Below, piece after piece: positions 6,064 through 53,372 of a stretch of 64,000 nt of DNA. Source of the stretch: Lentimicrobiaceae bacterium (lineage in GTDB: Bacteria; Bacteroidota; Bacteroidia; Bacteroidales; F082); contig SUWV01000009.1 in assembly GCA_015061315.1 (NCBI GenBank), positions 19,193-83,192 on the forward strand, given 5' to 3'. A program made the position numbers and the translations under genes. How positions within the stretch are numbered: the stretch's first letter is position 1; every line of letters begins with the position of its first letter. Below the pieces are notes generated by a model. The model did not search any database, was not told where the DNA came from, and saw only the letters and a list, made by a program, of their open reading frames with translations.

Positions 6064-6117
6064 AGATAGGAAAAAGGGGAAAGACGAAAGTCTAAAGTCT
6101 AAAGATTTTTTAACTTT

Positions 6118-6741: not shown

Positions 6742-6791
6742 GCAATTTTCAGATGTGTCAATTTCGTATTGTTAAAATCATTGGTGTAATC

Positions 6792-6966
6792 GACGCGTCT
6801 CTACAAATTGTCAATTGTACATTTTCAACTGTTAATTGTAAATTGTAAATTAATTTGGGCGTTCCGGCTACGCCGTCGGGCTTTCCGCTATATCTTTTTC
6901 CGCTTCGCTCCAAAAGGATGTCGCTCCAATCCCTAACGCAAAGCGGCTACTATGTACAGACGCGTC
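6792..6966. repeat. 14-bp inverted repeats (GACGCGTCTCTACA / TGTACAGACGCGTC) enclosing 147 bp of word repeats plus a GC-rich island
   Basis: The arms at 6792-6805 and 6953-6966 match 13/14 as reverse complements. The arm sequence belongs to the TAGAGACG hairpin family seen elsewhere in the window. Confidence 0.6.
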
Positions 6967-13289: not shown

Positions 13290-14468
13290 ATGAAGAAAGT
13301 ATTGTTGGTATTTGGAACACGTCCTGAAGCTATCAAGATGGCTCCATTAGTAAAGAAATTTCAAGAAGACTCTGAATTTCAAACTATTGTATGTGTGACA
13401 GCCCAACATCGCGAAATGCTTGATCAAGTTCTCGACATCTTTGACATAAAACCTGACTATGATTTGAATATCATGAAACAAGGTCAGGATTTATACGATA
13501 TAACATCAAGAGTCTTGCTCGGACTTCGTGACGTTCTTAACGAAACAAATCCAGATGTCGTTCTTGTTCATGGCGACACAACTACTTCAACAGCAGCGGC
13601 ATTGGCAGCTTTCTACAAGCAAATTCCCGTCGCTCATGTCGAAGCTGGACTTAGAACCAATAATATTTACAGTCCTTGGCCAGAAGAAATGAACCGCAGA
13701 ATAACAGGACGCATCGCAACCTATCATCTTGCGCCAACGGAACTAAGTCGTCAGAATCTTTTGAAAGAAAATGTTGATAATCAAAATATAATTATTACAG
13801 GTAACACTGTTATCGACGCTTTGTTATGGGTTGTCAATAAAATTAAAAGTGACGCCAATCTCGCCGAAACATTGCAAATAAATATTAAGAATAACGGTTA
13901 CGATATAAATCGTATTTCATGTGAAGACACACGTCCGTGTGCCTCTACAAGAAAACTCGTTCTTATCACAGGACATCGTCGCGAGAACTTTGGAGAAGGT
14001 TTTAGAAATATCTGTAATGCAATCAAGACATTATCTATAAAATATCCTGATGTCGATTTTGTTTATCCGATGCATTTAAATCCTAATGTACGTAAGCCTA
14101 TAGCAGAAATTTTCGGTAACGACAAAGATAAATCAGGGAACACTTTTTTCATAGAACCTCTTGATTATCTTAACTTTGTCTTTTTGATGGAAAAAGCAGA
14201 CATCATCTTGACCGACAGCGGTGGCATACAAGAAGAAGCACCGAGTCTCGGAAAACCAGTCTTGGTAATGCGCGACAATACCGAACGTCCGGAAGCTTTA
14301 GAAGCCGGGACAGTGAAACTCGTTGGAACTGATTACGATAAGATTATCAATGAAGTTTCGGAATTATTGGATAACGAAGAATCTTACAACAAGATGAGCA
14401 AGGCTGTCAACCCATACGGCGACGGATCAGCCTGCAAAAGAATCGTCGATTTCATGAAAAAGAACTGA
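13290..14468 (+). CDS. wecB: UDP-N-acetylglucosamine 2-epimerase (non-hydrolysing)
   Basis: [51 protein letters not shown] and NPYGDG are the full WecB signature set. Confidence 0.95.
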
Positions 14469-29092: not shown

Positions 29093-29860
29093 TCATTCAA
29101 CAACCAGCTTCTCAATCTTTCCATTGACATCGATAAAATAAATTCCTGTCTTGATATCGCTGATGTTTATCGTTGCATCGTTAATATTTGAAATATGAAC
29201 TTCTTTCACACAGCGACCTGTCATGTCGTATATCTTGACATCGGCTTCGCTATTATGTTTAGAAGTGATTTTGATTTCCGTTGAAGCCGGATTAGGATAA
29301 ATCCCGATTTCATTATCATTCAATTCAGCAATAGCCGTAGGTTTATAATCTTCATCCATTGCAGTTTTTATCTCGTCAATAAGTTGTTGTGTTGAAGTGA
29401 TAGGCCAAATGTCTTCAATAACGATTTTACGATTTGGAGCTATAAGCATCACTCTTGGCATTATTATTACATTATAAAGATTTTCACAGATGTCGTGAAC
29501 TGAAGTTCCATCAGTGAACGGGTGAATTACCGGGAAATCAACCTGATATTTTTGCTTCCAAGTATCAATCTTCAACGAATCGGCTGTAGGGTCAATACCG
29601 ATAAAAAAGACCTCATCTTGATTAGCGCCGAAATAATAATAAGTTTCTGCAATACATGGGTCAATAATTTCAGAGTTATTACCATCGTTCCAGAAGAAAT
29701 ATAGCAAAGCGTATTGTCCGTCATCTAAGATATCGAACAAATGCACATTAGTTCCATATTCATCAGTACAATTAAAATCTACAGCATCCTTAAATCCTGT
29801 CTGTGCGTTGATGCTCAAAGTAAATATTATAGCACAAATTAATGATATAATTTTTTTCAT
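29093..29860 (-). CDS. T9SS-sorted thioredoxin-fold protein, CxxC lost (paralog 1)
   Basis: Has a signal peptide. The TlpA-like fold aligns with paralogs 3 and 4, but the active-site position reads YFFWNDGNNSE. The C-terminus IYPNPASTEIKITS...VKIYDMTGRCVKEV...GIYFIDV is a T9SS sorting domain. Confidence 0.7.
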   Translation of the reverse strand: MKKIISLICAIIFTLSINAQTGFKDAVDFNCTDEYGTNVHLFDILDDGQYALLYFFWNDGNNSEIIDPCIAETYYYFGANQDEVFFIGIDPTADSLKIDTWKQKYQVDFPVIHPFTDGTSVHDICENLYNVIIMPRVMLIAPNRKIVIEDIWPITSTQQLIDEIKTAMDEDYKPTAIAELNDNEIGIYPNPASTEIKITSKHNSEADVKIYDMTGRCVKEVHISNINDATINISDIKTGIYFIDVNGKIEKLVVE

Positions 29861-29908
29861 CTCTATAATTTTATTAGTGTTAAGTTTTATTTATTTTATG
29901 GAAGCAAT

Positions 29909-29932
29909 AAGGACGCAATTCAATGCGTCCTT
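29909..29932 (-). terminator. hairpin terminator downstream of paralog 2
   Basis: AAGGACGCA-attcaa-TGCGTCCTT is a perfect 9-bp stem located 13 nt after the stop of 29945..31825. Confidence 0.6.
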
Positions 29933-29944
29933 ACATTTTGTATT

Positions 29945-31825
29945 TTATTCTATTATGAGTTTTTCAAAAGAACCATTAATATTAATGAGGTATAATCCTT
30001 TATCAATATCGCTGATGTTTATCGTAGCTTTGCTGATGTCAGAAACGTGAACTTCTTTCATGCAGCGGCCTGTCATATCGTATATCTTGACATCGGCATC
30101 GCCATTGAGTTGAGAAGTGATTTTGATTTCTGTTGAAGCCGGATTAGGATAAATATTGAATGATGACGACAACTCTTCAATACCATCAGGTTTTGTTGTA
30201 ACAAATTCCACTTTTGTTATCTCGCCCCATTCGCCTTTGATGTTTTTACCTTGAGCTACAGCGTAATATTCGGTATTTGCCTCAAGACCTTCCCATGTCC
30301 AATCGTCGATTTCATACAAAGCGTAAGGATCTTCGTACAAGAATTTCATTGTAGAGTCGATACCGATAGAATCAGAGAATGATTTTTCAATCAAGATGTA
30401 ATGATATTCTGCAGTCTCTTCGTTAGGTGTTGCTACGACACGAACTGATGTCGTTGTAAGTATTTCCACCTTAACATCTATAACAGAAACACCTTCGCCA
30501 CCCATTGCCACTGTATTGACAGAAAGTTGCTGAAGTTCGCCCGACTTACCTTCTGCGTCTTTAGGAAGCACATAGATGATATATTCTGTATCAGGGACTA
30601 AATCCTTCCATAAGTGTGTTGAAGGCTCTGTTCTTGCGATGCTCCATTGTTCAATAAGTTGTTCCAATGTCACGCCGAATACGGTAGTCCATTGTTCCAT
30701 ACTGCCTACGCTATCGCATAAGATGAAGTAAGAAGCGCACTCATCGTTAGGAGTGAAAGAAGCCTCGATAGTAGTCTCGGTAATATCAATAACACCTATT
30801 TCTACAGCAGGACCGTCGGCAGGTTCCGGATTTGGATTTTCATTTTCAACAGCCTCAAGAGTCCATGTAGCTGCGAGAGTTACGGCAGCATCACAGAAAA
30901 CATAATTGACACCTTCCACATACTCAACTTTAAAATAGTTGTTAGCTTTGCCTGCCACGAAATAAGGATCTGTAAGATAGAAAGTCTCATTTCCATTATC
31001 AATCATTTTCAAGGCCGACTTGTTAGAACTATTTGCATCGACATTCCATTGTTGGCACACAATATAATAGCCATCAGCGGAACGAAGATAAACATTGTCA
31101 TTTCCTGCATCTTCGATGGTAAATATTTGAGAATCGCTTTCAGCGTAATCTGCTACACCTACACCACCGATAGGACCGCTCTCATGAGCATCATGATTGA
31201 AAATGTGAAGATATTGATTTGTTGCTAAATCTTTTATACGATATTGCTCTACTGTCGGTTCTGGATCTGGTTCCGGATCTGGATTTGGTTCTTCACCACA
31301 TTCATATTCCTGTATGCCAAACTCAGCAAGAGCTGATACTACATCATCTGAGGTTTTTATCTCGCCTATATCTTGAAGCACGATGCTTTTATTTGGAGCG
31401 ATGAGCATCGTTGTTGGCTGGTTACAGTTGTGAGCGCGCCAAATATCCATAGCAGGTCCTTCCATACCATTAGATTCATCGGTATTGTGAATCATTGGAA
31501 ATTCTATACCATATTCATCTACATATTTTTTTGTGTTATTTGTTGTGCCATTTGGTACAACTCCAATAAAAAATACATCATGCTGGTTACAGCCTAATCT
31601 CTTATAAGCCTCAACCAATGGAGGTGTCACTGTAGGCGTTGCCTCATTTGTTCTGGTATTAATATGCAACAATACATATTGATCATTTTCTAGTATTTCA
31701 TACAAATGGATTTCGTCTCCAAAATAATCTGTTGCGATAAAGTCTGGAGCTTCTGTCAATGTAGTTTGTGCCTTCAAGCCGAGTGCAAAAACCACAGCAA
31801 TGATAAGGGATAGAAATTTCTTCAT
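29945..31825 (-). CDS. T9SS-sorted thioredoxin-fold multidomain protein, CxxC lost (paralog 2)
   Basis: The N-terminal fold is homologous to the other paralogs, but the active site reads HINTRTNEATP. It has EPNPDPEPDPEP and ENENPNPEP linkers, a possible lectin-like middle domain, two copies of a roughly 95-aa TPN...EWGE module, and a T9SS sorting domain. Confidence 0.7.
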   Translation of the reverse strand: MKKFLSLIIAVVFALGLKAQTTLTEAPDFIATDYFGDEIHLYEILENDQYVLLHINTRTNEATPTVTPPLVEAYKRLGCNQHDVFFIGVVPNGTTNNTKKYVDEYGIEFPMIHNTDESNGMEGPAMDIWRAHNCNQPTTMLIAPNKSIVLQDIGEIKTSDDVVSALAEFGIQEYECGEEPNPDPEPDPEPTVEQYRIKDLATNQYLHIFNHDAHESGPIGGVGVADYAESDSQIFTIEDAGNDNVYLRSADGYYIVCQQWNVDANSSNKSALKMIDNGNETFYLTDPYFVAGKANNYFKVEYVEGVNYVFCDAAVTLAATWTLEAVENENPNPEPADGPAVEIGVIDITETTIEASFTPNDECASYFILCDSVGSMEQWTTVFGVTLEQLIEQWSIARTEPSTHLWKDLVPDTEYIIYVLPKDAEGKSGELQQLSVNTVAMGGEGVSVIDVKVEILTTTSVRVVATPNEETAEYHYILIEKSFSDSIGIDSTMKFLYEDPYALYEIDDWTWEGLEANTEYYAVAQGKNIKGEWGEITKVEFVTTKPDGIEELSSSFNIYPNPASTEIKITSQLNGDADVKIYDMTGRCMKEVHVSDISKATINISDIDKGLYLININGSFEKLIIE

Positions 31826-31892
31826 AATTTATAATTTTAATGTTATGATATATTTGTTTACGAGTCTACAAATATAAGAAATAATATTCAAT

Positions 31893-31930
31893 AAAAAAAG
31901 CAGCAACCGAGATTTGATTGCTGCTTTTTT
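31893..31930. terminator. intrinsic terminator downstream of paralog 3
   Basis: A7-GCAGCAA...TTGCTGC-T6 is a hairpin flanked by A and T runs. Confidence 0.7.
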
Positions 31931-31949
31931 ATGTTAAAATCTGTTAAGA

Positions 31950-33701
31950 TTATTCAATAACTAATTTTTGGATGTTATAGCTGTTATCTTGTTGAATTGA
32001 GATGAAGTAAACACCTTTATTCAAGTCTTCAACATTGACAGAGACCTTGCTCATATCGTTGGCAGAAATTTCTTTCACGCAGCGACCTGTCATATCGAAG
32101 ATATTGATTTGAGCTTTTCCATTCAATGATGATTCGATGTTAATCATTGATTGAGCTGGATTTGGATAGATATTGAAGTTAGCTTCTATCTCTGTCAAAG
32201 CGTCTAATGAAGGTGTTGTAAAATGAACTATTGAAGTTTCACCCCATTCGTTGTTAAGGTTTTTAGCTGTTCCCAATGCAACGTATGCTGTTTCTGGAGT
32301 AAGCTCTGTCCATGTTGCTGATGTTTGTTCTGATGCTGGATAACCGTCATTACGGATTTGTTGTATTAATGACTCAACACCTGTTCCGTCGAAGACAGCT
32401 TTTGTAACCAAACCGAAATGGAATTCCACTGCGTGTATGTTAGGAGTTGCTGTAATTGTAACTTCTGTTGGCATAGCTTTGACGTCTAATGCAACTTCTG
32501 CTGGACCAGCTTCTTTTTCAACTACAAATTCTTCCACTGTTGGAGCGCCCCATTCACCTTCGCCGTTTCTACCGATAGCGACTACATAGTAAGGAACATT
32601 ACCTGGAATATTTTCTGTTTCAACAACATATGTGTCTCTGTCGCATAATGGATAATCGTCGTTAATCAAACTGATGAGGAATTTATAACTATTTTCTTCG
32701 CTTTCATCATAGAACTCTTTTTTCACAAAACCAAAGTGGTAATCTGCTGTCGATTCGTTAGGTTTTGCTGTAGCGTTGACGTGTGTGTCTGTTACCATTA
32801 CTTCGAGTTGTATTTCAGCTTCGCCATTATCACCTGGACATATTGTCTTAGTTTCTATAACTGATTTGTTACCGTTTGCATCGTCATAACCAATAGCTTG
32901 TGCATAAACGAAGTATGTTGTTAATTCTTTCAAACCTTCGAAAGTGTGTGAAAACTCAGTTCCTTCTGCTTTTGTTCCGTTTGCAATAATATCTTCAGAA
33001 GTCAAGTTTGCTGACTCAGAGATTGTATAATAAAAATCTTTTACAGCTGCATTCGCACGGAAATCGACGAAAACTTTTGTCGATGCTTCATAAATAACAC
33101 CAACGCCGTCTGGTATATAGAAATTATCTTTCTTAACCTTTGCGACAGATACTATTGGTTCTTGGTCGCCACAAAAATTCTCAGAGATATTGCCGTCTGA
33201 CACTTCTATAAGTTTGTTTACCAAATCATTTGCTGATGTAGGTTTATAATCTTGGAAAAGAATGCTACGGTCTGGAGCGATGAGAATCAAAGTAGGACAA
33301 GCAGCGATGTTATATGTTTCATAAATCACATCACCAGTAGTACCACCAGTCTTAGTATGTATTGTTGGATAAGGAATATTGTAAGTGTTAATCCATTGGT
33401 CTGTAGAATATGAAGCGTATGTGTCGGTTGGAGAAATTTCCATGAAATACACGTCGCCTTCGTTACAACCTAATTTATAGTATGCATCTACGATTCTTGG
33501 TGCATATTCTTTACATGGTCCACATGTAGAGAAAAAGAAATCAATTAAAACATATTGACCACCATCTAAGATTTCAAAGAGGTCAATTTCTTCACCATTG
33601 TGAGCTGTAGATGTGAAGTTTACAGCTTCTGTTAATGTGGTTTGTGCGCTAACGCTGATGCTTAATAACAAAGCGAAAGCAAATGATAAAAACTTTTTCA
33701 T
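31950..33701 (-). CDS. T9SS-sorted thioredoxin-fold multidomain protein with an intact CGPC motif (paralog 3)
   Basis: LIDFFFSTCGPCKEYAP is a thioredoxin/TlpA active site. It has three copies of the TPN...EWGE module and a C-terminal IYPNPAQS...INIFDMTGRCVKEI sorting domain. Confidence 0.75.
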   Translation of the reverse strand: MKKFLSFAFALLLSISVSAQTTLTEAVNFTSTAHNGEEIDLFEILDGGQYVLIDFFFSTCGPCKEYAPRIVDAYYKLGCNEGDVYFMEISPTDTYASYSTDQWINTYNIPYPTIHTKTGGTTGDVIYETYNIAACPTLILIAPDRSILFQDYKPTSANDLVNKLIEVSDGNISENFCGDQEPIVSVAKVKKDNFYIPDGVGVIYEASTKVFVDFRANAAVKDFYYTISESANLTSEDIIANGTKAEGTEFSHTFEGLKELTTYFVYAQAIGYDDANGNKSVIETKTICPGDNGEAEIQLEVMVTDTHVNATAKPNESTADYHFGFVKKEFYDESEENSYKFLISLINDDYPLCDRDTYVVETENIPGNVPYYVVAIGRNGEGEWGAPTVEEFVVEKEAGPAEVALDVKAMPTEVTITATPNIHAVEFHFGLVTKAVFDGTGVESLIQQIRNDGYPASEQTSATWTELTPETAYVALGTAKNLNNEWGETSIVHFTTPSLDALTEIEANFNIYPNPAQSMINIESSLNGKAQINIFDMTGRCVKEISANDMSKVSVNVEDLNKGVYFISIQQDNSYNIQKLVIE

Positions 33702-33824
33702 TTTTAAGAATTTAATGATTAATTATGGATTAAAATTAAGGCGCAAATGTAATACTTTTTTTTGAACTGATATGCTGAAAATCAGACTTTTTTAAGTTAA
33801 AAATTATCAACTATCAATTATTAA

Positions 33825-34865
33825 CTATTCATTATTAATTATCAACTTCTCAATATTACCATTAATATTAATAAGGTATAATCCCTTTTCAATATCGCTG
33901 ATATTTATCCTTGTATTATCATCGCAGATACGAACATCTTTCACGCAGCGCCCTGTCATGTCGTAAATCTTGACGTCGGCTTCTTTCATTTCAGATATTA
34001 TATTTATTTCTGATGAAGCTGGATTAGGATATATCTTAAAATTATTTAACAATAACTCTTCCACATTTTCTCCCGAGAAAGTCTTGTCGCATGCTTCATC
34101 AGATTTTTCTGACTCTGCTGTAGTACTTACGGCTGTCACACTAAAACAATATTCTGTATCCGCTGTCAAGCCTGTTACTGTATATTGAATATCGTCGATG
34201 CTATCCGCCACTAACTCTGTTCCTTGGTAAAGGTTATAAGTAACAGCGTTTTCCACTGCGTTCCATACCACGAGCATAGAAGTGTCGCTTGTTGCAATCA
34301 CCGTCGCTTCAGGTTTCTCAGGAGTTACTACAGGGACTTCTGGCTCTTCATCGCAGCTGTGTTCTTCAATGCCAAATGGAGCGAGAGCGTCTACTATGTC
34401 TTGAGCTGTTTCTACAGGATAAATGTCTTGAAGTACAATGCTACGATCTGGAGCTATCAGCACCAATGTCGGATATTGTTTTATACCATAAGTGTCGTCA
34501 ATTTTATCGCCTCCTGCTTCTCTGCTGATAGTCGGATATTCAACACCAAATTTCTCTACCCACCATTGACATATTTCATCGCTGTCGGAAGGAGATATTT
34601 CCATGAAAAACACGTCATGCTTATTGCAACCGAGAGCCTCGTATGCCTCAACAACATGCGGACATGCATCAAAACAAGGAGAACAACTATAAAAGTAAAA
34701 ATCTATTAACACATATTGTCCTCTGTCTAAGATTTCAAAAAGATGTATAGTATCTTGACCGTAGCAATCTACTGCTGTGAAGTCGACAGCTTCTGTTAAT
34801 GTAGCTTGTGCTTTTACGTTAAGACTCAATACTATTGCAAATAAAAGTGATATAATTTTCTTCAT
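33825..34865 (-). CDS. T9SS-sorted thioredoxin-fold protein with a CSPC motif plus an FN3-like domain (paralog 4)
   Basis: LIDFYFYSCSPCFDACP. The FN3-like segment is VVWNAVENAVTYNLYQG...EYCFSVTAV. A T9SS sorting domain is present. Confidence 0.75.
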   Translation of the reverse strand: MKKIISLLFAIVLSLNVKAQATLTEAVDFTAVDCYGQDTIHLFEILDRGQYVLIDFYFYSCSPCFDACPHVVEAYEALGCNKHDVFFMEISPSDSDEICQWWVEKFGVEYPTISREAGGDKIDDTYGIKQYPTLVLIAPDRSIVLQDIYPVETAQDIVDALAPFGIEEHSCDEEPEVPVVTPEKPEATVIATSDTSMLVVWNAVENAVTYNLYQGTELVADSIDDIQYTVTGLTADTEYCFSVTAVSTTAESEKSDEACDKTFSGENVEELLLNNFKIYPNPASSEINIISEMKEADVKIYDMTGRCVKDVRICDDNTRINISDIEKGLYLININGNIEKLIINNE

Positions 34866-34983: not shown

Positions 34984-36312
34984 ATGAGAAAAATAACACA
35001 TATTAGAAAAGGCTTTTCCAAGCTTCTCAAGGAAGATAAATTGAAAGCTGTTGCGGAATGTGTGAAGAACCCGTCTGAGTTTATTTCCTTATTGAAGAGT
35101 TTCTGGCATTCCGACGAGGAGAAACAGAAACAATTTGATGAGTTCAGCGAGAACACTATTTCTAATTTTCATGTCCCTTACGGCGTATCTCCCAATGTGA
35201 TTATCAATGATGAAACGTATATCGTTCCTATGGTTATTGAAGAAAGCTCTGTCGTGGCAGCAGCATCGGCAGCGGCGAAGTTCTGGGGCGACAGAGGTGG
35301 CTTCCATGCAGAAATAGTTGATGTGAAAAAAGTAGGTCAGGTGCATTTCTGCTGGAAAGGAGAGAAAGACACTTTGACAAAACTGATGCCCGACATCAAG
35401 GCTGAGCTTCTGAAAAACACTGCTTCCATCACAGAGAAAATGGAGAAACGCGGCGGCGGAATATTGGATATTGAACTCATCGATTTCACCGATAAGATAG
35501 ATAACTATTATCAGCTTCGCGTCACCTTCAACACCTGCGACTCCATGGGCGCTAACTTCATCAATTCTATCTTGGAAAACTTCGGTCATAGCTTGCAAGA
35601 CTTCTTCTTACGTCAGGATAATTTGAAAGAAGACGAGAGAGAAGTCGAGATTGTGATGTGTATCTTGTCGAATTATACTCCCGAATGTTTAGTGAAGGTT
35701 TGGGTTGAATGTGACGTGAAACAGTTAGATGGCGTCGATGAAAAACTCGATGGCAAGGCTTTCGCCGAGAAATTCAAGAAAGCTGTCGATATTGCACACG
35801 TCGACGTATATCGCGCTACCACTCATAACAAAGGAATTTATAACGGCATCGACGCCGTCGTCATCGCGACAGGCAACGACTTCCGTGCGGTAGAAGCAGC
35901 AGGACATTCCTACGCCGCAAGAAACGGTCGCTACGAAAGTCTTTCATACGTCGAAATTAAAGATGATATTTTCAGATTTACCTTGGAAGTACCACTCGCT
36001 CTCGGCACCGTCGGCGGATTGACATCCTTACATCCTCTTGCAAAACAATCGCTCGAGCTCATGGGTAATCCTTCGGCAAGACAGCTTATGATGATAGCTG
36101 CGACAATGGGACTCGCCAATAATTATGCTGCCGTTAAGTCACTAACAACAAAAGGAATACAACAAGGACACATGAAGATGCACCTCGCCAATATCCTCAA
36201 TCAGCTTGGAGCGACAGAAAATGAAAAGACATTGGCGATAGAATATTTTAAAGATAAAATCGTTTCTTATTCTGAAGTAGAGAAATTTTTACAATTAATA
36301 ATAACCAAATAG
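34984..36312 (+). CDS. mvaA: hydroxymethylglutaryl-CoA reductase, class II
   Basis: EESSVVAAAS, CDSMGANFIN and LGTVGG are class II HMGR signatures. It is followed by other mevalonate-pathway genes. Confidence 0.9.
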   Translation: MRKITHIRKGFSKLLKEDKLKAVAECVKNPSEFISLLKSFWHSDEEKQKQFDEFSENTISNFHVPYGVSPNVIINDETYIVPMVIEESSVVAAASAAAKFWGDRGGFHAEIVDVKKVGQVHFCWKGEKDTLTKLMPDIKAELLKNTASITEKMEKRGGGILDIELIDFTDKIDNYYQLRVTFNTCDSMGANFINSILENFGHSLQDFFLRQDNLKEDEREVEIVMCILSNYTPECLVKVWVECDVKQLDGVDEKLDGKAFAEKFKKAVDIAHVDVYRATTHNKGIYNGIDAVVIATGNDFRAVEAAGHSYAARNGRYESLSYVEIKDDIFRFTLEVPLALGTVGGLTSLHPLAKQSLELMGNPSARQLMMIAATMGLANNYAAVKSLTTKGIQQGHMKMHLANILNQLGATENEKTLAIEYFKDKIVSYSEVEKFLQLIITK

Positions 36313-36407
36313 CCTGAAGGGCTTATATAGATATAACGTATGGCATGGCCGTACGGAATTGCCTGAAGGGCTTATATAGATACAACGTATGGCATGGCCG
36401 TACGAAT
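36312..36407. repeat. tandem direct repeat, 2 x 49 bp, each unit carrying a CGTATGGC-atg-GCCGTACG hairpin
   Basis: Units at 36312-36360 and 36361-36407 differ at one position within the first 44 nt. They start at the last base of the HMGR stop codon. Confidence 0.85.
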
Positions 36408-36420
36408 ATAATGAGGAATT

Positions 36421-37419
36421 ATGAATTGTTTTAAATCGAACGGTAAATTTTTATTGACGGGAGAGTATCTCGTTTTGAAGGGCGCTACTGCTTTGGCTCT
36501 TCCCTTGGCATTAGGACAGAGCATGGAGGTAGAAATTTTAGGCTCCAACGATGGCAGGATTTATTGGGAAGCGCTTTTGAAGCCTGCGGTCAATGGTTTA
36601 TGGTCTACAGACATCGTTCATAGTGAAATACCTTGGTTTAAGGTTGTTTTAGACAAAAGAGATTTTAGTGTTGTTGCGACTGACGACAAGGAAAGAGCTG
36701 AGCGTTTGTCGGATATATTATCGAAGGCTAAGAGACTGAACGAAACTCTTTTTGATGAGCCGAGCGACTATAAATTCTGCACATATTTGGATTTCGACCC
36801 GCACTGGGGTCTGGGCAGCAGCTCCACCTTAATTAATAATATAGCCGAATGGGCTAATATAAATCCTTATCTTTTGTTGGACGAGACTTTCAAAGGCTCT
36901 GGCTACGACATAGCATGCGCTAAGGCGGAAGCACCAATCTTTTATCAAATCAACGAATCGACAGGACAAAGAGTCAATGAGTCGAGAGCGGCAAACTTCA
37001 ATCCTTCTTTTAAAGATAATATTTACTTTATATATCAAGGTCATAAGCAAAATTCTGCCAATGAAGTAAAGGCTTTCTTGGATAAGAAGAAAAATTATGA
37101 TAGAGAAATTAAATCGATCAGCGAGATCAGCAGAATTATTCCTGACATACAGACACTCAGTGATTTCAATTATTTCATCAAAGTTCATGAAGAGATAATG
37201 TCGAGCTGCTTAGAACGTAAACGCATAAAAAAACATTTCAACGATTTTGAAGGTGAGATGAAATCGCTCGGAGCATGGGGCGGCGATTTCTTCATGGCAG
37301 CCACAGAATGGGACGATGATAAAGTAATTGAATATTTTAGAAATAAAGGACTTGATGTTATTTTCAAATATAACGACATAATATTAAATCGTGAAATTGA
37401 AAAAACTCTAACCCTTTAA
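36421..37419 (+). CDS. GHMP-family kinase, probable phosphomevalonate kinase (ERG8-like)
   Basis: GKFLLTGEYLVLKGATALALP at the N-terminus, the GHMP motif HWGLGSSSTL, and the operon context. Confidence 0.6.
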   Translation: MNCFKSNGKFLLTGEYLVLKGATALALPLALGQSMEVEILGSNDGRIYWEALLKPAVNGLWSTDIVHSEIPWFKVVLDKRDFSVVATDDKERAERLSDILSKAKRLNETLFDEPSDYKFCTYLDFDPHWGLGSSSTLINNIAEWANINPYLLLDETFKGSGYDIACAKAEAPIFYQINESTGQRVNESRAANFNPSFKDNIYFIYQGHKQNSANEVKAFLDKKKNYDREIKSISEISRIIPDIQTLSDFNYFIKVHEEIMSSCLERKRIKKHFNDFEGEMKSLGAWGGDFFMAATEWDDDKVIEYFRNKGLDVIFKYNDIILNREIEKTLTL

Positions 37420-37452: not shown

Positions 37453-38472
37453 ATGAATAATCAGATAATAAAACATAGTCCATCTAATATCGCAATAGTA
37501 AAATATTGGGGCAAACACGGAAATCAACTTCCTAATAATCCGTCTATCAGTTTTACCTTAAGTAATTGCTTTACAGAAACGAAAATAACTTACAGCAATA
37601 TAGATTCTCAGTTTTTCAAATCCTCAGATTCTCAGATTTCTTTAGATTTCTTTTTTGAAGGAAAGGAAAATCAAGCTTTTAAAGATAAGATAGAGAAGTT
37701 TATTCTGAAGAACGAACAATATTTTTCTTTCTTAAAAGGGCTTCATCTGAATATTGAAAGTCGCAATTCTTTTCCACATTCTTCTGGCATCGCTTCGAGT
37801 GCATCATCTATGAGTGCATTGGTAATGTGCTTATTAGGAATTAAATATAAAGACAGAGAGATTGATTTACAGGAGGCTTCATTTCTTTCAAGATTAGCAT
37901 CGGGCAGTGCAGCTCGTTCTGTATATCCGACAATGACCTTGTGGGGGAAAACTCCAACATTGTCGAATAGTTCCGATGAGTACGCCATTCCTATAGGCGA
38001 TATGATAGCACCAGTCTTCAAGTCATATCACGACACAATATTGATTGTCAGCTCAAAGGAAAAAAGTGTTTCAAGCCGCGCTGGTCATTCCTTGATGGAA
38101 AATCACCCTATGGCAGAAAGTCGTTACGCCACAGCAAGAAAAAATACTGAAGATTTATTGACGATTTTAAAACAAGGCGACATAGAAGGTTTTATAAAAA
38201 TAGCCGAAGCTGAAGCTAATCAGCTGCACGATTTAATGGCAACATCAAAGCCTTCATATACTCTCAAAGAACCTAATACTATTAATATCATTAATAAAAT
38301 TTTAGAATTTAGAAAAGACACTTCTCTTCCAATATGTTATACATTAGACGCTGGTCCTAACGTACATCTTCTCTATCCTGATTTCTGCGCCGATAAGGTT
38401 CAGCTCTTCATTGAAGACGTGTTGAAAGACTATTGTTTTGATAATAAATATATCGAGGATAAGGTTGGATGA
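37453..38472 (+). CDS. mvaD: diphosphomevalonate decarboxylase
   Basis: SPSNIAIVKYWGK, FPHSSGIASSASS and YTLDAGPNVH are MVD signatures. Confidence 0.9.
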   Translation: MNNQIIKHSPSNIAIVKYWGKHGNQLPNNPSISFTLSNCFTETKITYSNIDSQFFKSSDSQISLDFFFEGKENQAFKDKIEKFILKNEQYFSFLKGLHLNIESRNSFPHSSGIASSASSMSALVMCLLGIKYKDREIDLQEASFLSRLASGSAARSVYPTMTLWGKTPTLSNSSDEYAIPIGDMIAPVFKSYHDTILIVSSKEKSVSSRAGHSLMENHPMAESRYATARKNTEDLLTILKQGDIEGFIKIAEAEANQLHDLMATSKPSYTLKEPNTINIINKILEFRKDTSLPICYTLDAGPNVHLLYPDFCADKVQLFIEDVLKDYCFDNKYIEDKVG

Positions 38473-38536
38473 GGAATGAAGAATGTAGAATGTAGAATGA
38501 AGAATGTAGAATGGTTAATGCTTATTGACTTATATC

Positions 38537-39475
38537 ATGAACAAACAATATCACGGCAAATTAATATTATTCGGCGAATATTCTATGATATTCGGTTCTG
38601 AGGCTTTGCTGATGCCGTATTACTCTGTTGGCGGAGAATGGACATCTGTCATAAATCGTCCATCGGAAAGAGCCTTTGAATCTAACGCTAATATTCGTAA
38701 GTATTACGATTATCTTTGTGATGACGACGACTTTAGGATTCTTGATCTGAGACGTTTCGGTATGGAGCTTGACGCCGGCTTATATTTCGATTCTAATATT
38801 CCTTTCGGTTATGGCGTAGGCAGCTCTGGCGCATTGACAGCGGCTATCTATGATCGTTATAAGTTAATAGAAATTAAGGATATTTGTAGATTGAAGAAAT
38901 TTCTTGCTAAGATGGAGAATTTCTTTCATGGCAGCAGCTCTGGCATCGACCCATTGCAATGTTATCTCGGGAAGCCGTTTGTGTTAAGACAACAGGACAA
39001 CGAGTCAACAAGTCAACGAGTTATAGAGAGTCAGTCTCCAATGGTAGAAATCTTGAATGATGACTTTATGTCAGACGATATTCACATTTTCTTGATTGAT
39101 ACCGAAATAAAAAGTCCGACAGCTCCTTTAGTGCAGCATTTCAAGGAGTTGAGAAAAGATGAAGCATATCTAAATAAATTCGATAATGATTATATTCCTT
39201 TGATAAGCAACTGCATCGCGACACTAATCGATAAGAAAGATGAAGATTTCTTCAATTATCTCTCACAGCTTTCTCAGATGCAAATTGAGTTGTTGTCGCA
39301 TACTATTCCAGAAGCTACAAGACCTTATTTCTTAAAAAATATTAAGGATGATGGTTTTCAGGTGAAATTATGTGGTGCTGGTGGCGGTGGCTATCTCTTA
39401 GGATTTTGTAAAGATATTGATAAAATCAATAATTTTTGGAATGATTTTGGTAATAAAATCGTCTGGGTAAAATAA
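38537..39475 (+). CDS. mvk: mevalonate kinase (GHMP family)
   Basis: GKLILFGEYSMIFGSEAL, the GHMP motif PFGYGVGSSGALTAA and C-terminal KLCGAGGGGY. The ATG at 38537 is preferred over the TTG at 38525. Confidence 0.75.
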   Translation: MNKQYHGKLILFGEYSMIFGSEALLMPYYSVGGEWTSVINRPSERAFESNANIRKYYDYLCDDDDFRILDLRRFGMELDAGLYFDSNIPFGYGVGSSGALTAAIYDRYKLIEIKDICRLKKFLAKMENFFHGSSSGIDPLQCYLGKPFVLRQQDNESTSQRVIESQSPMVEILNDDFMSDDIHIFLIDTEIKSPTAPLVQHFKELRKDEAYLNKFDNDYIPLISNCIATLIDKKDEDFFNYLSQLSQMQIELLSHTIPEATRPYFLKNIKDDGFQVKLCGAGGGGYLLGFCKDIDKINNFWNDFGNKIVWVK

Positions 39476-45008: not shown

Positions 45009-46778
45009 ATGATGAAACATTACAACATACCGATTTTTTTACCCGAACTCGCTTGCCCTTATCGCTGCGTTTATTGTAATCAATTTAGCATTACGGGAAA
45101 TGACGATATTGTAAAACCTGAAGATGTTAAGAATATAATCGACAGCCACTTAGCTTCTTTTAAAGAAGAAAATCGTTTCGTGGAAGTGGCTTTCTTCGGT
45201 GGTAATTTCACCGGACTTCCTGTCAAAATGCAAAACGATTATCTTGAAGTGGTGCAGCCTTATCTTGATAAAAATCTCATTCACGGTATTCGTTGTAGCA
45301 CTCGCCCCGATTATATCTCGCTTCAGCGTGTTAAAGAAATTAAACATCTCGGTATGCGTAACATCGAACTCGGAGCACAAAGCACTAACGACGAAGTTCT
45401 GAAACATTGTAAACGTGGTCATACTTACAACGACATCGTTGAGGCATCGCAGATAATTCTTTCCGAAGGAATTACGTTGGGACTACAAATGATGATAGGT
45501 CTTCCTTACGATTCTGAAGAGAAGGATTTTCAGACAGCAAAAGATATAGTAAATCTCGGAGCTAAAGAGACTCGCATCTATCCTTGTATCGTAGTGAAGG
45601 ACACTGAGTTAGAGGCTTTATATCGTAATGGAGATTATAAAGCTCTTTCTATCAATGAAGCTGTAAGTCGTTCTTCAAAATTATATTCTTATTTTATTGA
45701 AAATCAAGTTAAAGTTTTAAGAATAGGTCTGCATCAATCTGATGAGTTGGATAAAGAAGGTTACGTTGCCGGTCCATATCACAAGAATTTTGCTGAGATG
45801 GTTTTCTCTCATATCTGGAAAGAGAAGTTTGAGAATCTGAAAATCTCAGAATCTGAAAACCTGAAAAAAGACATAATAATCAATGTGCCTGCATCGCAGA
45901 TAAATCACGCTATAGGATGGAATGGCGAGAATAAGAGAATGTTGTTAGATCGATTTGATAAAGTAGAGTTTAAGGCTAATGACAAAAGACAAAAGACAAA
46001 AGATGAAGATGATGATTTTACGTTTACCATCACTACAAAAGACGAGCTTCCGACAATTATCGCTGATTCGAGAATGCCAGAGGATGCGAAGAAAAATCTG
46101 AAGAAATTAGGAAACGTCCTTTTCATCAATCCTACTTCTGTGACTTATAATTCAATATCTTCACATCCAGATATTTTCTTCTTTCAAAAAGACGATGCTT
46201 TGATTTATGCGCCCAATGCTCCGAAAAGAATAGTCAAGGAATTGAAGAAGCGAAAGATAAAACTCATCGAAGGCAAGAAAGAAGTCGGGAAGAAATATCC
46301 GGAGACGGTTCCTTATAACGCAGTCGGAATTGGAAATCTGTTGATACATAATTTAAAACATACCGACGAGACGATTTTGTCATCTTACGAAAATCACATA
46401 AATGTTAATCAAGGATATACGCGATGTAATCTTTTGGCTTTGAATGAAAATGCGTTTATCACGTCAGATGTTGGCATTTTCAATGTAGTCAACAGTCAAC
46501 AGACAACAGACAACAGTCTTTATCCACACGAATCTCTTGTAGGTACGTCCATATTGTACATCGACCCAAAACAAATTAAATTGGAAGGTCAGAAAAACGG
46601 ATTTTTCCCAGGCTGTTGCGGCGTTTGGAAAAACAATCTTATCGTTTGTGGCAGCACAAAAAATCTAAAAGAGAAAGCCGAATTAGATAAATTCTTGAAA
46701 GATAATAATTTCAATCTCATTGAATTATACGACGGAGATTTGATTGATGTGGGAAGCGTTTTTTCAATTGACAATTAA
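45009..46778 (+). CDS. radical SAM (ELP3-like) protein fused to a C-terminal domain of unknown function, possibly DUF6873/GME-fold-like
   Basis: The N-terminus has CPYRCVYCNQ (CxxxCxxC) and a radical SAM core of about 300 aa. The C-terminal 240 aa or so contains SSHPDIFFF and other features that I only tentatively associate with the DUF6873 family. Confidence 0.6.
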   Translation: MMKHYNIPIFLPELACPYRCVYCNQFSITGNDDIVKPEDVKNIIDSHLASFKEENRFVEVAFFGGNFTGLPVKMQNDYLEVVQPYLDKNLIHGIRCSTRPDYISLQRVKEIKHLGMRNIELGAQSTNDEVLKHCKRGHTYNDIVEASQIILSEGITLGLQMMIGLPYDSEEKDFQTAKDIVNLGAKETRIYPCIVVKDTELEALYRNGDYKALSINEAVSRSSKLYSYFIENQVKVLRIGLHQSDELDKEGYVAGPYHKNFAEMVFSHIWKEKFENLKISESENLKKDIIINVPASQINHAIGWNGENKRMLLDRFDKVEFKANDKRQKTKDEDDDFTFTITTKDELPTIIADSRMPEDAKKNLKKLGNVLFINPTSVTYNSISSHPDIFFFQKDDALIYAPNAPKRIVKELKKRKIKLIEGKKEVGKKYPETVPYNAVGIGNLLIHNLKHTDETILSSYENHINVNQGYTRCNLLALNENAFITSDVGIFNVVNSQQTTDNSLYPHESLVGTSILYIDPKQIKLEGQKNGFFPGCCGVWKNNLIVCGSTKNLKEKAELDKFLKDNNFNLIELYDGDLIDVGSVFSIDN

Positions 46779-46943
46779 CAGTTTACAATTAACAATTGAA
46801 AGAAATGTCACTTGATATGCAGCAACGACATCTCGTTTATTATTTTCTGTGTCGTTGATATGTCTCTATAGTTGTTGCTCAAAGCTCAAAGCTCATTGCC
46901 AAAAAATCTTTAGTCATTAGACTTTTGACTTTAGCCTTTTTTC

Positions 46944-46951
46944 TATCTTTG
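46944..46951 (+). promoter_or_regulatory. -7 box TATCTTTG upstream of the U32 peptidase gene
   Basis: A perfect TAnnTTTG 18 nt upstream of the ATG at 46969. Confidence 0.55.
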
Positions 46952-46968
46952 CAACAAACATTTCCTTT

Positions 46969-48927
46969 ATGAAAAAAATTGAGCTTTTATCGCCGGCGAA
47001 GAATCTTGAAGTAGGCATCGCGGCTATCAATCATGGCGCTGATGCTGTGTATATTGGCGGACCGAGTTTTGGTGCGAGAGAGAAAGTTGGTAACAGCATT
47101 GAAGATATTGAGACTCTGTGCAGACACGCGGCTCTCTTCGATGCTAAAGTATATGTCACGATGAATACTCTCTTGTTCGACAATGAGTTAGAAGATGCTC
47201 GCAAGCTCGCTTACGACTGCTGGAATGCTGGTGTCGATGCACTCATAGTCCAGGATATGGCGCTGCTGAATATGGATATGCCTCCTATCGCACTTCACGC
47301 TTCGACTCAATGTCATAATATTGACGCAGAGAAGGTTAAGTTCTTGGAAGACGTAGGATTTTCTCAAGTCGTTTTGGCGAGAGAATTAAGCATCGAACAG
47401 ATAAAAGACATTCGTTCTAAGACGACAGTTCCGTTAGAATATTTCGTTCACGGTGCCTTGTGCGTCTCGTATAGCGGACAATGTTATTTGAGTCACGTCA
47501 TCGGTGGACGTTCCGCTAACAGAGGTGCCTGCGCTCAGCCTTGCCGTCTCAGCTGGAATCTCGAAAATGCGGAAGGCAAACGCTTGGCTACCAACAGACA
47601 TCTTCTTTCTTTAAGAGATCTGAATAACTCTAAAAACATAGAAGAACTCATCGACGCCGGAATCTCTTCTTTTAAGATTGAAGGCAGGTTGAAAGATATT
47701 GACTACGTGAAAAATGTCACTGCCTTTTACAGAAAGAAAATCGACGAAATCATTGAACGTCGCGACGATATTTGCAGAAGCTCACGCGGCGAAAGCAATC
47801 CCTCTTTCTATCCAAATCCAGAGAAATCGTTTTCAAGAGGCTTCACCGACTATTTCATCCACGGAAGACAAAAATATATCGACGCTCCATATTCGCCTAA
47901 GTCGATGGGAGAATATCTCGGAACGATAGAAAAAGTCAAGAATAAGTCAGTGACTATCAGAACAGGAAAAACGCTTCATAACGGCGACGGACTTTGTTTC
48001 TTAGACAGAGAAAACAATCTTTTAGGATTTAATGTTAACGCCGTGGCGGAAAACAAAACACGTTCTTTGACTCAGACTGTTACGAGCAACTCTGACATTT
48101 CGATGGCAACGCGATTTAAGATTGAAGGCAGCAAGATTTTCAGAAACAGCGACCTTGTCTGGCAGAAGGAAGTCGAGAAATCGCAAGGTAACAGAAAGAT
48201 GAAAATAGACTTGATATTTACTGATACAGAAGACGGATTTGCCTTGTCAGCGAAATTACATGATACAGATTCAGAATATATCACGACATATTTATCTACC
48301 GAGAAAGAAATCGCCAACAATGCGGATAAGGCGTTGGAAAATATCAAGAATAAACTATCGCAATGGGGCGATACGGAATTTGTGGTGGAGGAGTTTTGTT
48401 TTGGTCAACAAGACAACGAGACAACAAGTCACCGAGATGTGGAGTTGCAGAAATTTCCCGTAGAGACATACGGACGTATGTCTTATTTTATTAGGGCATC
48501 AGTTCTCGGTGAGATGAAAAAAGATTTGGTCGAGAAGCTACGTTCATATCTCATTGAGAAACATCGTGATGAAAGAGAACGTAGAGATGTCACTCCTGTA
48601 GAGACGTACGGACGTACGTCTTCACAACAAAATGTAATTTATCCTAAAGAACATCTTTCATATCTCGGCAATGTCATCAACAAGAAAGCGAGAGAGTTTT
48701 ACGAGCTTCATGGTGTGAAAGATATTGAAGACGGTTTGGAGAAAATCAAATCTAATGACGAGCTTGTTGTGATGACGACGAAACATTGTATTCGTTACGC
48801 TAATAATATATGTAGCAAGGAGATAGGGAAGCCAGCGACATCCTTATATTTGGTCAACGACAAAGGACGCTTCCGTCTCGATTTCGATTGCAGAAATTGT
48901 TGCATGAAAGTGATAAAAGAAAAATAA
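46969..48927 (+). CDS. peptidase U32 family protein (long form with a C-terminal extension)
   Basis: ELLSPA, GADAVYIGG, FVHGALCVSYSGQCYLS and SANRGACAQPCR are U32 signatures. The 652-aa product contains repeat-derived segments (see findings). Confidence 0.85.
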   Translation: MKKIELLSPAKNLEVGIAAINHGADAVYIGGPSFGAREKVGNSIEDIETLCRHAALFDAKVYVTMNTLLFDNELEDARKLAYDCWNAGVDALIVQDMALLNMDMPPIALHASTQCHNIDAEKVKFLEDVGFSQVVLARELSIEQIKDIRSKTTVPLEYFVHGALCVSYSGQCYLSHVIGGRSANRGACAQPCRLSWNLENAEGKRLATNRHLLSLRDLNNSKNIEELIDAGISSFKIEGRLKDIDYVKNVTAFYRKKIDEIIERRDDICRSSRGESNPSFYPNPEKSFSRGFTDYFIHGRQKYIDAPYSPKSMGEYLGTIEKVKNKSVTIRTGKTLHNGDGLCFLDRENNLLGFNVNAVAENKTRSLTQTVTSNSDISMATRFKIEGSKIFRNSDLVWQKEVEKSQGNRKMKIDLIFTDTEDGFALSAKLHDTDSEYITTYLSTEKEIANNADKALENIKNKLSQWGDTEFVVEEFCFGQQDNETTSHRDVELQKFPVETYGRMSYFIRASVLGEMKKDLVEKLRSYLIEKHRDERERRDVTPVETYGRTSSQQNVIYPKEHLSYLGNVINKKAREFYELHGVKDIEDGLEKIKSNDELVVMTTKHCIRYANNICSKEIGKPATSLYLVNDKGRFRLDFDCRNCCMKVIKEK

Positions 48928-50739: not shown

Positions 50740-50749
50740 TATGTATCTT

Positions 50750-50777
50750 GTAGAGACGCACAGCCGTGCGTCTTTAC
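50750..50777. repeat. TAGAGACG-family hairpin between aspS and pfkA
   Basis: GTAGAGACGCAC-agcc-GTGCGTCTTTAC is a 12-bp stem with one mismatch. Confidence 0.75.
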
Positions 50778-50803
50778 GTGAGATACGATAAATAACGACC
50801 AAA

Positions 50804-53240: not shown

Positions 53241-53372
53241 CAGTCTAAAGTCTACGGATTATTTAAGTCAATAAGTAGAGACGTGACACATTACACCTGT
53301 AAAAATGAAAGAGATGTAATTGGTGCGTCTCTCATTGTTTCTCAGATTCTCAGATTTTCAATTTCTCAGATT
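53241..53372. repeat. composite intergenic repeat, copy B (AGTCTAA tract / TTAAGTCAATAAG / TAGAGACG hairpin / CAGATTYT tract)
   Basis: Colinear with 984-1182. The hairpin is TAGAGACGTGACACATTACACC (53276-53297) ... GATGTAATTGGTGCGTCTCT (53313-53332). Confidence 0.8.

Follow-up and report, generated by a model that had tools for sequence, protein, structure and literature searches.

Why should an enzyme gene carry, within its reading frame, stretches of DNA that resemble the repeats lying between genes? The question is raised by a 64,000-nucleotide stretch from a Lentimicrobiaceae bacterium (contig SUWV01000009.1), referred to here in its entirety as the window, in which the gene at 46969-48927 on the forward strand encodes a 652-residue protein with a Peptidase_U32 domain (residues 75-302), a DUF3656 domain (390-478) and a cysteine-rich C-terminal domain. 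An earlier sequence-only reading had proposed that this U32 gene contains in-frame copies of intergenic repeat modules, made up of a tract of short words and a hairpin, in the manner of the Rickettsia palindromic elements (RPEs). The follow-up analysis described here leads to a similar answer: the segments are probably non-coding repeats, namely double-foot repetitive extragenic palindromic (REP) hairpins and tracts of 7-8-nt words, that lie in frame in an essentially intact enzyme gene, in loops that are structurally permissive. In-frame palindromic repeats are already known as a phenomenon, and the U32 case is a clear further example; what is distinctive here is that the hairpins are coupled to tracts of 7-8-nt words, that four hot spots carry dozens of alleles, and that one REP replaces another in nested fashion.

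Repeat modules within the U32 gene

Hot spot A, a hypervariable segment of 102 nt (48382-48483, forward strand) between the conserved anchors GDTEF and YFIR, adds about 21 residues relative to distant orthologs. It holds an octamer word tract, TCAACAAG ACAACGAG ACAACAAG TCACCGAG (48405-48436, forward strand; the string CAACAAGACAACGAGACAACAAGTCACCGAG at 48406-48436 and the preceding T that completes four octamers), which is read in frame as QQDNETTSHR, is assigned a period of 8 by Tandem Repeats Finder and starts where the DUF3656 profile match ends, at position 81 of 109. Since 8 is not a multiple of 3, the tract is a repeat of DNA and not of amino acids. It belongs to a repeat family (D6) common to the intergenic segment 1026-1086. 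The 11-mer AAGTCACCGAG, which the sequence-only reading had found in both places, occurs exactly twice in the window (1022-1032 and 48426-48436), and a pattern of three consecutive WCAAYRAG words gives nine overlapping matches at four window loci vs none in 100 shuffled sequences.

A forward-strand spacer of 23 nt (ATGTGGAGTTGCAGAAATTTCCC, 48437-48459) separates the tract from REP hairpin 1 (48460-48487, forward strand), which has a GTAG foot, the stem AGACATAC/GTATGTCT, the loop GGAC and a degenerate 3' foot TATT, and is read in frame as VETYGRMS. Further downstream on the same strand lies the 5' part of an older REP (GTAGAGATGTCAC-TCCT-GT, 48581-48599), the 3' arm of which has been replaced by REP hairpin 2 (48598-48625; GTAG AGACGTAC GGAC GTACGTCT TCAC), read VETYGRTSS; in alleles of the type found at the related locus L009 the older REP is complete (GTAGAGACGTCACTCCTGTGGCGTCT). 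Both hairpins, taken as 48460-48483 and 48598-48621, have an 8-bp stem and a 4-nt loop, and their stems differ by a complementary exchange of A-T to G-C. A degenerate pattern written for this hairpin has three matches in the window vs 0 in 100 shuffles, two of them being the U32 hairpins (48460-48484 and 48598-48622) and the third being on the minus strand inside another open reading frame (ORF; 13924-13948), where the stem changes are again complementary. Fold energies are -11.1 kcal/mol for hairpin 1 and -14.9 kcal/mol for hairpin 2 (z -2.8 and -3.6), and the four short REP copies of the window, taken as single strands, give -11.1, -14.9, -16.4 and -21.1 kcal/mol (z -2.8 to -6.0). All the strings quoted in the sequence-only reading are present, its translations agree with the 652-residue ORF, and both the hairpin and the octamer pattern are in excess over shuffles.

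A generic scan for GTAG hairpins (at least 9 pairs, one mismatch, loops up to 24 nt) proved too permissive, with 6 matches vs 5-14 in shuffles, and the bare 7-mer TAGAGAC is weakly enriched in the window (13 vs 6.5 expected). At the gathering threshold Rfam gave nothing in the window besides tRNA and Flavo-1, and a permissive E-value search of 48380-48660 gave no match.

Hypervariable loops in a conserved protein

The comparison drew on the best 120 homologs (81-100% identical overall, 625-719 residues) and on a one-genome-per-species scan, which found about 30 close relatives among metagenome-assembled genomes (MAGs) of Candidatus Limimorpha, Bacteroidales or Lentimicrobiaceae, mostly from ruminant gut; alleles were counted in 148 close relatives, and identity outside the hot spots was measured in 119 of these. 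Internal length differences are confined to four hot spots, which in query residues are C (360-368), D (~435), A (473-505) and B (538-553), with the tract and hairpin 1 in A and hairpin 2 in B; some homologs also have N-terminal extensions that come from different start-codon calls. Measured between anchors, A has 75 alleles of 12-55 residues, B 49 of 10-43, C 37 of 15-53 and D 27 of 6-33, the last mostly in steps of 7 residues, and the allele classes of A and B occur in all combinations. Outside the hot spots, identity to the window protein is 90.2-99.3% (median 98.1%, n=119). In distant orthologs (40-57% identity, 603-648 residues), which came from the same species scan, no residues correspond to the tract and hairpin 1, and where hairpin 2 would be there is a short linker of unrelated sequence, so that the comparison with orthologs called for by the sequence-only reading comes out in favour of a lineage-specific insertion. 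A separate candidate, that hot spot A marks the junction of an old fusion between two genes, was rejected because distant orthologs are contiguous across the site.

The DNA of the hot spots is a mosaic of four kinds of element: heptamer tracts (units GACAACA and CCAATAG), octamer tracts (units AGACTACA and TCAACAAG), GTAG-footed hairpins of several sub-types (e.g. GTAGAGACATACGGACGTATGTCT, GTAGGGACGCGGCTTGCCACGTCCGTAC, GTAGAGACGTCACCCCTGTGGCGTCT and GTAGAGACGCAAAATATTGCGTCT) and a hairpin of ~50 nt (GCCTGAGCCTGTCGAAGG...CTTCGACAAGCTCAG). A long type of the GTAG-footed hairpins, GTAGAGACGCGTCAATGT...ACATTGACACGTCT, is found at site C. The 3' half of GTAGAGACGCAAAATATTGCGTCT recurs in extra tandem 24-nt units, one more in locus L015 and three more in L022, and the copies of GCAAAATATTGCGTC that follow the REP head as half-REP units number two in L015 vs four in L022. 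The ~50-nt hairpin, GCCTGAGCCTGTCGAAGGCAGACATCGGCACTTCGACAAGCTCAGTGACC, read CLSLSKADIGTSTSSVTEE, was seen in hot spot A of L012, L013, L017, L020, L027, L032 and L033 and is apparently a distinct palindromic repeat of greater length, also tolerated in frame.

In L031 a single REP (GTAGAGACGTCACCCCTGTGGCGTCT) is read in sense at B (RRDVTPVAS) and in antisense at D (DATGVTSL), which, together with the intergenic copies of the modules, indicates that the repeats act at the level of DNA. This bears on a quite improbable alternative, in which selection works on the protein and the segments are a diversifying surface loop, or a low-complexity linker built up at the codon level, whose likeness to intergenic repeats is incidental. 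Very high allele diversity at four defined loops and a linker-typical hydrophilic composition rich in Gln, Thr and Ser would fit such selection, but periods of 7 and 8 nt cannot come from amino-acid repeats, one gene reads the same DNA in both orientations, identical modules occur in unrelated genes and in intergenic DNA, and diversifying selection on a cytoplasmic enzyme of the U32 family has no obvious reason. The strong preference for one REP frame (VETHGRAS or VETYGR) in independent host genes also speaks for the protein, but purifying selection against readings that are hydrophobic or rich in Cys, and against the frame that contains TAG, explains it just as well.

Comparisons between close relatives show how the modules come and go. 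The 24-nt segment CCTGTAGAGACGTACGGACGTACG (48595-48618, forward strand) is absent in L080, whose protein is 98% identical, and in L001. Three substitutions lie directly upstream of it (GATGTCACT in the window, GACATTACT in L080 and AACATTACT in L001), and the presence/absence junction has no target-site duplication, which gives it the look of a patch replacement and not of a simple insertion. The replacement of the 3' arm of the older REP by hairpin 2 can be read from the L009-type sequence (GTAGAGAYGTCACTCCTGT-GGC-GTCT) vs that of the window (...CCTGT-AGAGACGTACGGACGTAC-GTCT), and in L001 an unrelated 78-nt cassette of equal length stands in place of 48382-48459, upstream of an identical hairpin 1.

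It is also conceivable, if unlikely, that the hairpins are retained for a role in cis on mRNA or DNA, as an attenuator or terminator, an mRNA stabiliser, or a translational pause after DUF3656, at the exact end of whose match hairpin 1 is situated; a function as RNA elements has been proposed for REPs (PMC3733652). Hairpin 1 and the downstream ATTTTATT resemble an intrinsic terminator and were found by a scan for terminator-like sites, but the scan shows no enrichment of such sites (5 vs 4.0 expected), and the T-run is ancestral coding sequence (Y-F-I) that is kept in orthologs without the hairpin. A hairpin is kept at the same spot in half of the relatives, whereas 74 of the 148 lack a VETYG-type hairpin at A, 55 of these having only a tract or a different repeat, and the presence of hairpin 2 varies between strains that are 98% identical. 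The stem tolerates G-T pairs on the GTAG strand, which in the U32 gene is the sense strand, but the REP in the wecB gene of the window (see below) is antisense, so that such pairs become A-C mismatches in its mRNA.

Hardly any probability attaches to the idea that the segments result from metagenome assembly, through a chimeric or collapsed repeat, or belong to a decaying pseudogene. The window does come from a MAG, and the contigs L008, L024, L028 and L029 end inside the U32 gene near the hot spots, indicating that assemblers struggle with these repeats, but 16 contigs in NCBI and JGI sources carry the very same protein, the flanks are 90-99% conserved, and in-frame alleles occur in 148 independently assembled relatives. 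As for decay, which the sequence-only reading had named as a possible refutation, the ORF is intact in all complete copies among these relatives despite the 75 alleles at A and 49 at B, and the cysteine columns of the catalytic domain and of the C-terminus are invariant in an alignment of 147 sequences.

The host protein and its inserted loops

The host protein has an RlhA-like architecture with both Pfam domains above their cut-offs, and it is identical to the protein of a MAG named 'Lentimicrobiaceae bacterium'. Some of its orthologs carry the JGI label 23S rRNA 5-hydroxycytidine C2501 synthase (RlhA). It does not reach an NCBIfam equivalog cut-off (the best match, TrhP, scores 179 bits vs a cut-off of 534), a sequence search of the PDB returned zero matches, and a Foldseek search of its model against the PDB retrieved generic TIM barrels for the N-terminal domain and was uninformative on the insertion sites.

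In the AlphaFold2 model built from the 147-sequence alignment (mean predicted local distance difference test score, pLDDT, 79.8; predicted template modelling score 0.85), the pLDDT is predicted to fall below 50 in residues 482-503 and 546-553 only, that is, in the insertions. The first of these is modelled between a strand (471-480) and a helix (510-538) and the second in the coil after that helix, and sites C and D are predicted to be beta-hairpin turns between paired strands. The suggestion that the segment forms a surface loop thus agrees with the prediction, which places both segments in loops between confidently modelled elements. In composition, Gln, Thr and Ser together make up 35% of the inserted peptides vs 12% of the remaining protein, and the grand average of hydropathy is -1.04 vs -0.40.

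Identity of the hairpins

To judge from its sequence, the hairpin is a double-foot REP of the type that accompanies REP-associated tyrosine transposases (RAYTs) resembling subclass 2.4 of TnpA_REP in Bacteroidota. REPs of this kind have a GT[AG]G tetranucleotide 0-2 nt from the hairpin base, with a fully paired basal stem of 7 nt or more and a loop of 2-5 nt in the short type and a longer, bulged stem in the long type. GTAG stands immediately 5' of the stem at 48460, 48598, 13925 (minus strand) and 50750, as well as in 45 copies in related loci, and the stems of 8-9 bp with a 4-nt loop are those of a short REP. Many intergenic and metagenome copies end in a 3' CTAC foot, the counterparts of which in the window are TTAC (50750), TCAC (48598 and 13925) and TATT (48460). 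Where copies differ in the inner stem, the changes are complementary, and G-T pairs are tolerated on the GTAG strand; in an alignment (A3) most rows of which were preselected for pairing, both sides change in 4 of 12 pairs, and the covariation score is reached by 0 of 500 shuffles.

The family hairpin has the form GTAGAGAC...GTCTCTAC. The exact motif GTAGAGACRYACGGACGTRYGTCT occurs in at least 120 metagenome contigs with a GC content of 29-54%, where it is often extended to ...GTCTCTAC and often then followed by arrays of its 3' half. Such an arrangement, in which a full REP leads into tandem repeats of its 3' half with a short spacer, was observed at L134, L100, L125, L161 and other metagenome loci, an example in XseA being VETHGRASQNGRASQNGRASQNG..., and the same architecture is present in the U32 gene of L015 and L022.

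Among the matches listed, a RAYT probe matches beside the motif in 4 of the 120 loci. The full ORFs of L125 and L102 pass the Pfam cut-off for Y1_Tnp and match NCBIfam REP_Tyr_transpos at E-values of 2e-18 and 3e-16, below the equivalog cut-off, and their homologs are found in Bacteroidota MAGs under the JGI name 'REP element-mobilizing transposase RayT'. The RAYT-like proteins are ~190-230 residues long and have NHxH, WQ and YIxNNP motifs. At L211 (1761-2705) the order is REP-RAYT-REP, with GTAGAGACGCACGGCCGTGCGTCTCTAC on either side of the gene, and at L207-L209 arrays of a GTAA variant stand on both sides of a RAYT-like gene, arrangements that resemble a REPtron. RAYT genes themselves contain an in-frame REP in L102 (13175-13699, minus strand) and in L201/L202 (2501-3202), where a tandem tract precedes it and the whole is read GGNVGGGNVG[DG]GNVG[DG]GNVETHGRASL (..GNVGDGNVETHGRASL..). 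The contigs with RAYT homologs have other whole-genome shotgun prefixes and a GC content of mostly 0.44-0.48 vs 0.38 in the window (0.37 in L203; L210 and L212-L214 excluded), and no lineage link was found for them.

Of the metagenome matches listed, 27 of 135 lie inside ORFs of at least 150 residues, and the hosts of an in-frame REP that Pfam confirms are a molybdopterin oxidoreductase subunit, a major facilitator superfamily transporter, XseA and HsdS. Nearly all of the in-ORF copies are read VETHGRAS, and TAG closes the GTAG+2 frame. Very long ORFs of ~1,200-2,600 residues in L113, L122, L129, L148 and L182 begin with REP arrays read (A)VETHGRAS...; these arrays may be translated, or they may be leader elements next to wrongly called starts. 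Two of these ORFs have a further REP copy just before a C-terminal YPNPTTG motif, which we take to resemble a type IX secretion sorting domain.

Copies elsewhere in the window

Three further genes of the window carry the same modules in frame. In the UDP-GlcNAc 2-epimerase gene wecB (13290-14468, forward strand), an antisense REP and its flank (13901-13952, minus strand) coincide exactly with ~19 residues that are extra relative to E. coli WecB (PDB 1F6D), and these 52 nt are 79% complementary to the intergenic segment 50746-50797. In a mevalonate-kinase-like ORF (38525-39475), an insertion of ~15 residues relative to PDB 2X7I holds an octamer tract (38989-39028, forward strand) read QQDNESTSQR, a peptide nearly the same as that in the U32 protein. 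The radical-SAM/DUF6873 ORF (45009-46778) contains a heptamer tract (GTCAACA/GACAACA), a spacer CTTTATCCACACGAATCTC and a degraded REP (46488-46550, forward strand), a composite that L001 has as its allele at U32 hot spot A; its REP is complete in L007 and L080, with the loop inverted between them (GGAC vs GTCC), and the window copy is 12 nt short. More tracts are found in the same ORF (~45821-45876 and 45974-46003) and in ORFs at 36958-36981 and 37602-37638, the last of which is unchanged in length vs PDB 3LTO. Between the radical-SAM/DUF6873 and U32 genes, L080 has an extra AAA_14 ATPase gene (L080 1495-2670), the counterpart of which in the window (46779-46968) is a 190-nt spacer full of repeats.

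The nearest intergenic relative of the U32 hairpins (pair I2) lies directly 3' of aspS (50746-50797, forward strand; the short REP proper at 50750-50777), with the reference sequence GTAGAGACGCACAGCCGTGCGTCTTTAC, a fold energy of -21.1 kcal/mol and a z of -6.0. A REP stands at the orthologous place 3' of aspS in at least 11 related species (L006, L010, L011, L016, L017, L022, L023, L025, L026, L032 and L034; ~6725-6876), and its inner stem and loop vary among them (GCAAAATGTTGC, GCACACTTGTGC, GTCACACTGTGGC and others), which suggests that the stem changes quickly and in a compensatory manner, or that the REP has been replaced again and again at a fixed site. The intergenic composite at 1033-1135 (forward strand) consists of an octamer tract (1033-1072), the part of which at ~1041-1072 reads ACAATAAG TCAATAAG ACAATAAG TCAATGAG and falls in the same family D6 as the U32 tract, followed by a long bulged hairpin (1071-1135) with a TAGAGA...GTCTCTA foot. 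The hairpin family had been said to include this intergenic copy, and the TAGAGAC...GTCTCTA foot is indeed there, but the copy is of a long bulged sub-type unlike the short 8-bp hairpins of the coding sequence. The long type recurs at 53277-53332, and the 64 kb hold at least four long and four short copies in all.

Other repeats were noted in passing. Heptamer tracts of the GTCTAAAG/CTTTAGAC type, bordered by A/T runs, lie at 979-1020, 6054-6111 and 46901-46958, each directly upstream of TAnnTTTG, which we take to be the Bacteroidota -7 box, and of the start codon of the adjoining gene; they form a recurrent promoter-proximal module of 40-58 nt (pairs I1 and I5, 83-90% complementary). The Flavo-1 RNA match (6870-6952, minus strand; 44.6 bits vs a gathering score of 42) adjoins a heptamer tract (6805-6851) and a long TAGAGACG-footed sequence (~6740-6803). 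A stretch between two ORFs (36308-36408) consists of 2.1 copies of a 49-nt unit, AATAGCCTGAAGGGCTTATATAGATACAACGTATGGCATGGCCGTACGG, with 92% matches. Four adjacent minus-strand ORFs of 255-626 residues (29093-34865) have common segments of 40-200 nt at 66-89% identity (D3-D11, D16 and D18) and, on the strength of these segments, appear to be a local paralogous gene cluster.

Relation to known systems

RPEs are reportedly found in frame in protein genes of Rickettsia (Ogata et al. 2000; Claverie & Ogata 2003), and RPE-1 is ~100-150 bp long. Like them, the present elements are palindromic selfish repeats that occur between genes and in frame in many unrelated genes, vary in presence between relatives, are absent from orthologs where they form in-frame loop insertions, and would be tolerated through their position in surface loops. 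They differ in being GTAG hairpins of 24-28 nt with no sequence relationship to RPEs, so that they fall outside that family, in belonging to a free-living gut anaerobe and not to the obligate intracellular Rickettsia, and in that several repeat types are nested at one site. The likening to RPEs in the sequence-only reading therefore holds for in-frame palindromes in loops, but the nearest known family is that of REPs and RAYTs and not RPEs as such.

A second comparison is with the short tandemly repeated repetitive (STRR) heptamer tracts of cyanobacteria and the small dispersed repeats that have reportedly been described in Nostoc (Mazel et al. 1990; Elhai et al. 2008). In cyanobacteria, intergenic tandem 7-nt words have hairpin repeats of 21-27 nt inserted in or beside them. 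A likeness may be seen in the period-7 and period-8 tracts that stand beside 24-nt hairpins here; the sequences of the words are unlike, and both 7- and 8-nt periods are present in our case.

Double-foot REPs of the form GT[AG]G...C[TC]AC have been described together with RAYTs in Bacteroidetes, and in RAYT subclass 2.4, which is common to Cyanobacteria and Bacteroidetes, REPs insert in the tnpA_REP gene without disturbing the frame, short repeats accounting for its variable domain (Quentin et al. 2018, PMC6006769). Di Nocera et al. (2013, PMC3733652) reported GTAG REPs in Proteobacteria, Cyanobacteria, Chloroflexi and the Planctomycetes-Verrucomicrobia-Chlamydiae group, whereas in Bacteroidetes they reported CGTC repeats and no GTAG REPs. 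The same study equated RPE-4 and RPE-6 with CGTC REPs and documented intragenic REPs in many housekeeping genes of other phyla, the Rickettsia RPEs and the intragenic GTAG and CGTC REPs of Opitutus, Thauera, Xanthomonas and others encoding 20-82 residues that are thought to lie in linkers or loops. The hairpins described here share with GTAG REPs the GTAG at the base of the stem, the 7-9-bp stem, the 4-nt loop and, in well-preserved copies, the CTAC foot; they share the dispersed copies, the sub-families that arise by complementary stem changes and the G-T pairs; and RAYT-like genes of Bacteroidales contigs have this hairpin on their flanks. Insertions that keep the frame and accompany short tandem repeats also recall the variable domain of the subclass 2.4 genes. 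The differences are that the repeats here sit in housekeeping genes, in an uncultured genus of gut Bacteroidales, that the copies in coding sequence are partly degraded, and that the hairpins are coupled to 7-8-nt word tracts with very fast turnover at fixed hot spots. A literature search found no account of such insertions in Bacteroidota housekeeping genes, nor of Limimorpha repeats, and a search for the hairpin sequence strings returned unrelated primer sequences only. The impression that in-frame colonisation was uncharacterised in Bacteroidota accordingly applies to housekeeping genes, but does not extend to the transposase gene, for which in-frame double-foot REPs were already known (PMC6006769).

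Proposed entry, tolerance and turnover

The most likely account of the U32 segments is tolerated selfish DNA in permissive loops, with rapid turnover thereafter. A REP or tract module would enter a coding loop either through single-strand transposition of the RAYT type or by being copied ectopically from a copy elsewhere in the genome. The insertions that survive keep the frame, are free of stops and encode a hydrophilic, loop-compatible peptide, an outcome seen directly in the alleles, and selection would be what removes out-of-frame, stop-containing and hydrophobic readings. After entry, the DNA would change by slippage of units, template-switching at palindromes, nested REP replacement and patch-wise conversion; because it continues to behave as repeat DNA, the four loops are hypervariable in the comparison of relatives and the remaining protein is 90-99% identical. 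The inserted peptide itself would be a disordered surface loop, functionally neutral and with no required function of its own.

Several observations weigh against this account. The sole near-isogenic presence/absence junction is not clean, having no target duplication and three adjacent substitutions, which leaves transposition as a putative entry route. A VETYG-type hairpin stands directly before YFIR in 74 of the 148 relatives, a retention that could come from common descent or from some benefit. The 3' feet of the copies in coding sequence are degenerate (TCAC and TATT), and a tblastn search of the window and of ~0.29 Mb of related loci (L001-L080; ~0.35 Mb with the window) gave no RAYT match, the probe making this a weak test. 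Finally, low pLDDT is weak evidence for disorder, as any lineage-specific insertion with few aligned homologs receives it.

A more far-reaching proposal, which we put forward tentatively and consider doubtful, is that double-foot REPs and 7-8-nt tracts make up a self-targeting repeat system in Candidatus Limimorpha, and probably in many other Bacteroidota, in which the first in-frame copy serves as a landing pad. Were this so, nested REP-into-REP replacement, half-REP arrays and the exchange of cassettes would all take place at the landing pad, defined loops of housekeeping proteins would evolve orders of magnitude faster than the remaining protein, and the system would offer an ongoing, observable route from selfish DNA to new protein segments with a strong bias to one frame (VETHGRAS).

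At a practical level, the repeats break assemblies inside genes and inflate the diversity of protein clusters, and recurrent motifs such as VETHGRAS, RDARPCVST and QQTTDN could pass for domains. For the biology of the group, selfish palindromes of the translated type, best known from Rickettsia, would by the sequence comparisons made here extend to abundant uncultured Bacteroidales of the gut and rumen and to varied metagenomic genes. A natural experiment is offered by hundreds of near-identical strains whose alleles at the four loops differ, one that could measure how repeats enter coding sequence, how they mutate and are filtered there, and how new peptide segments originate.

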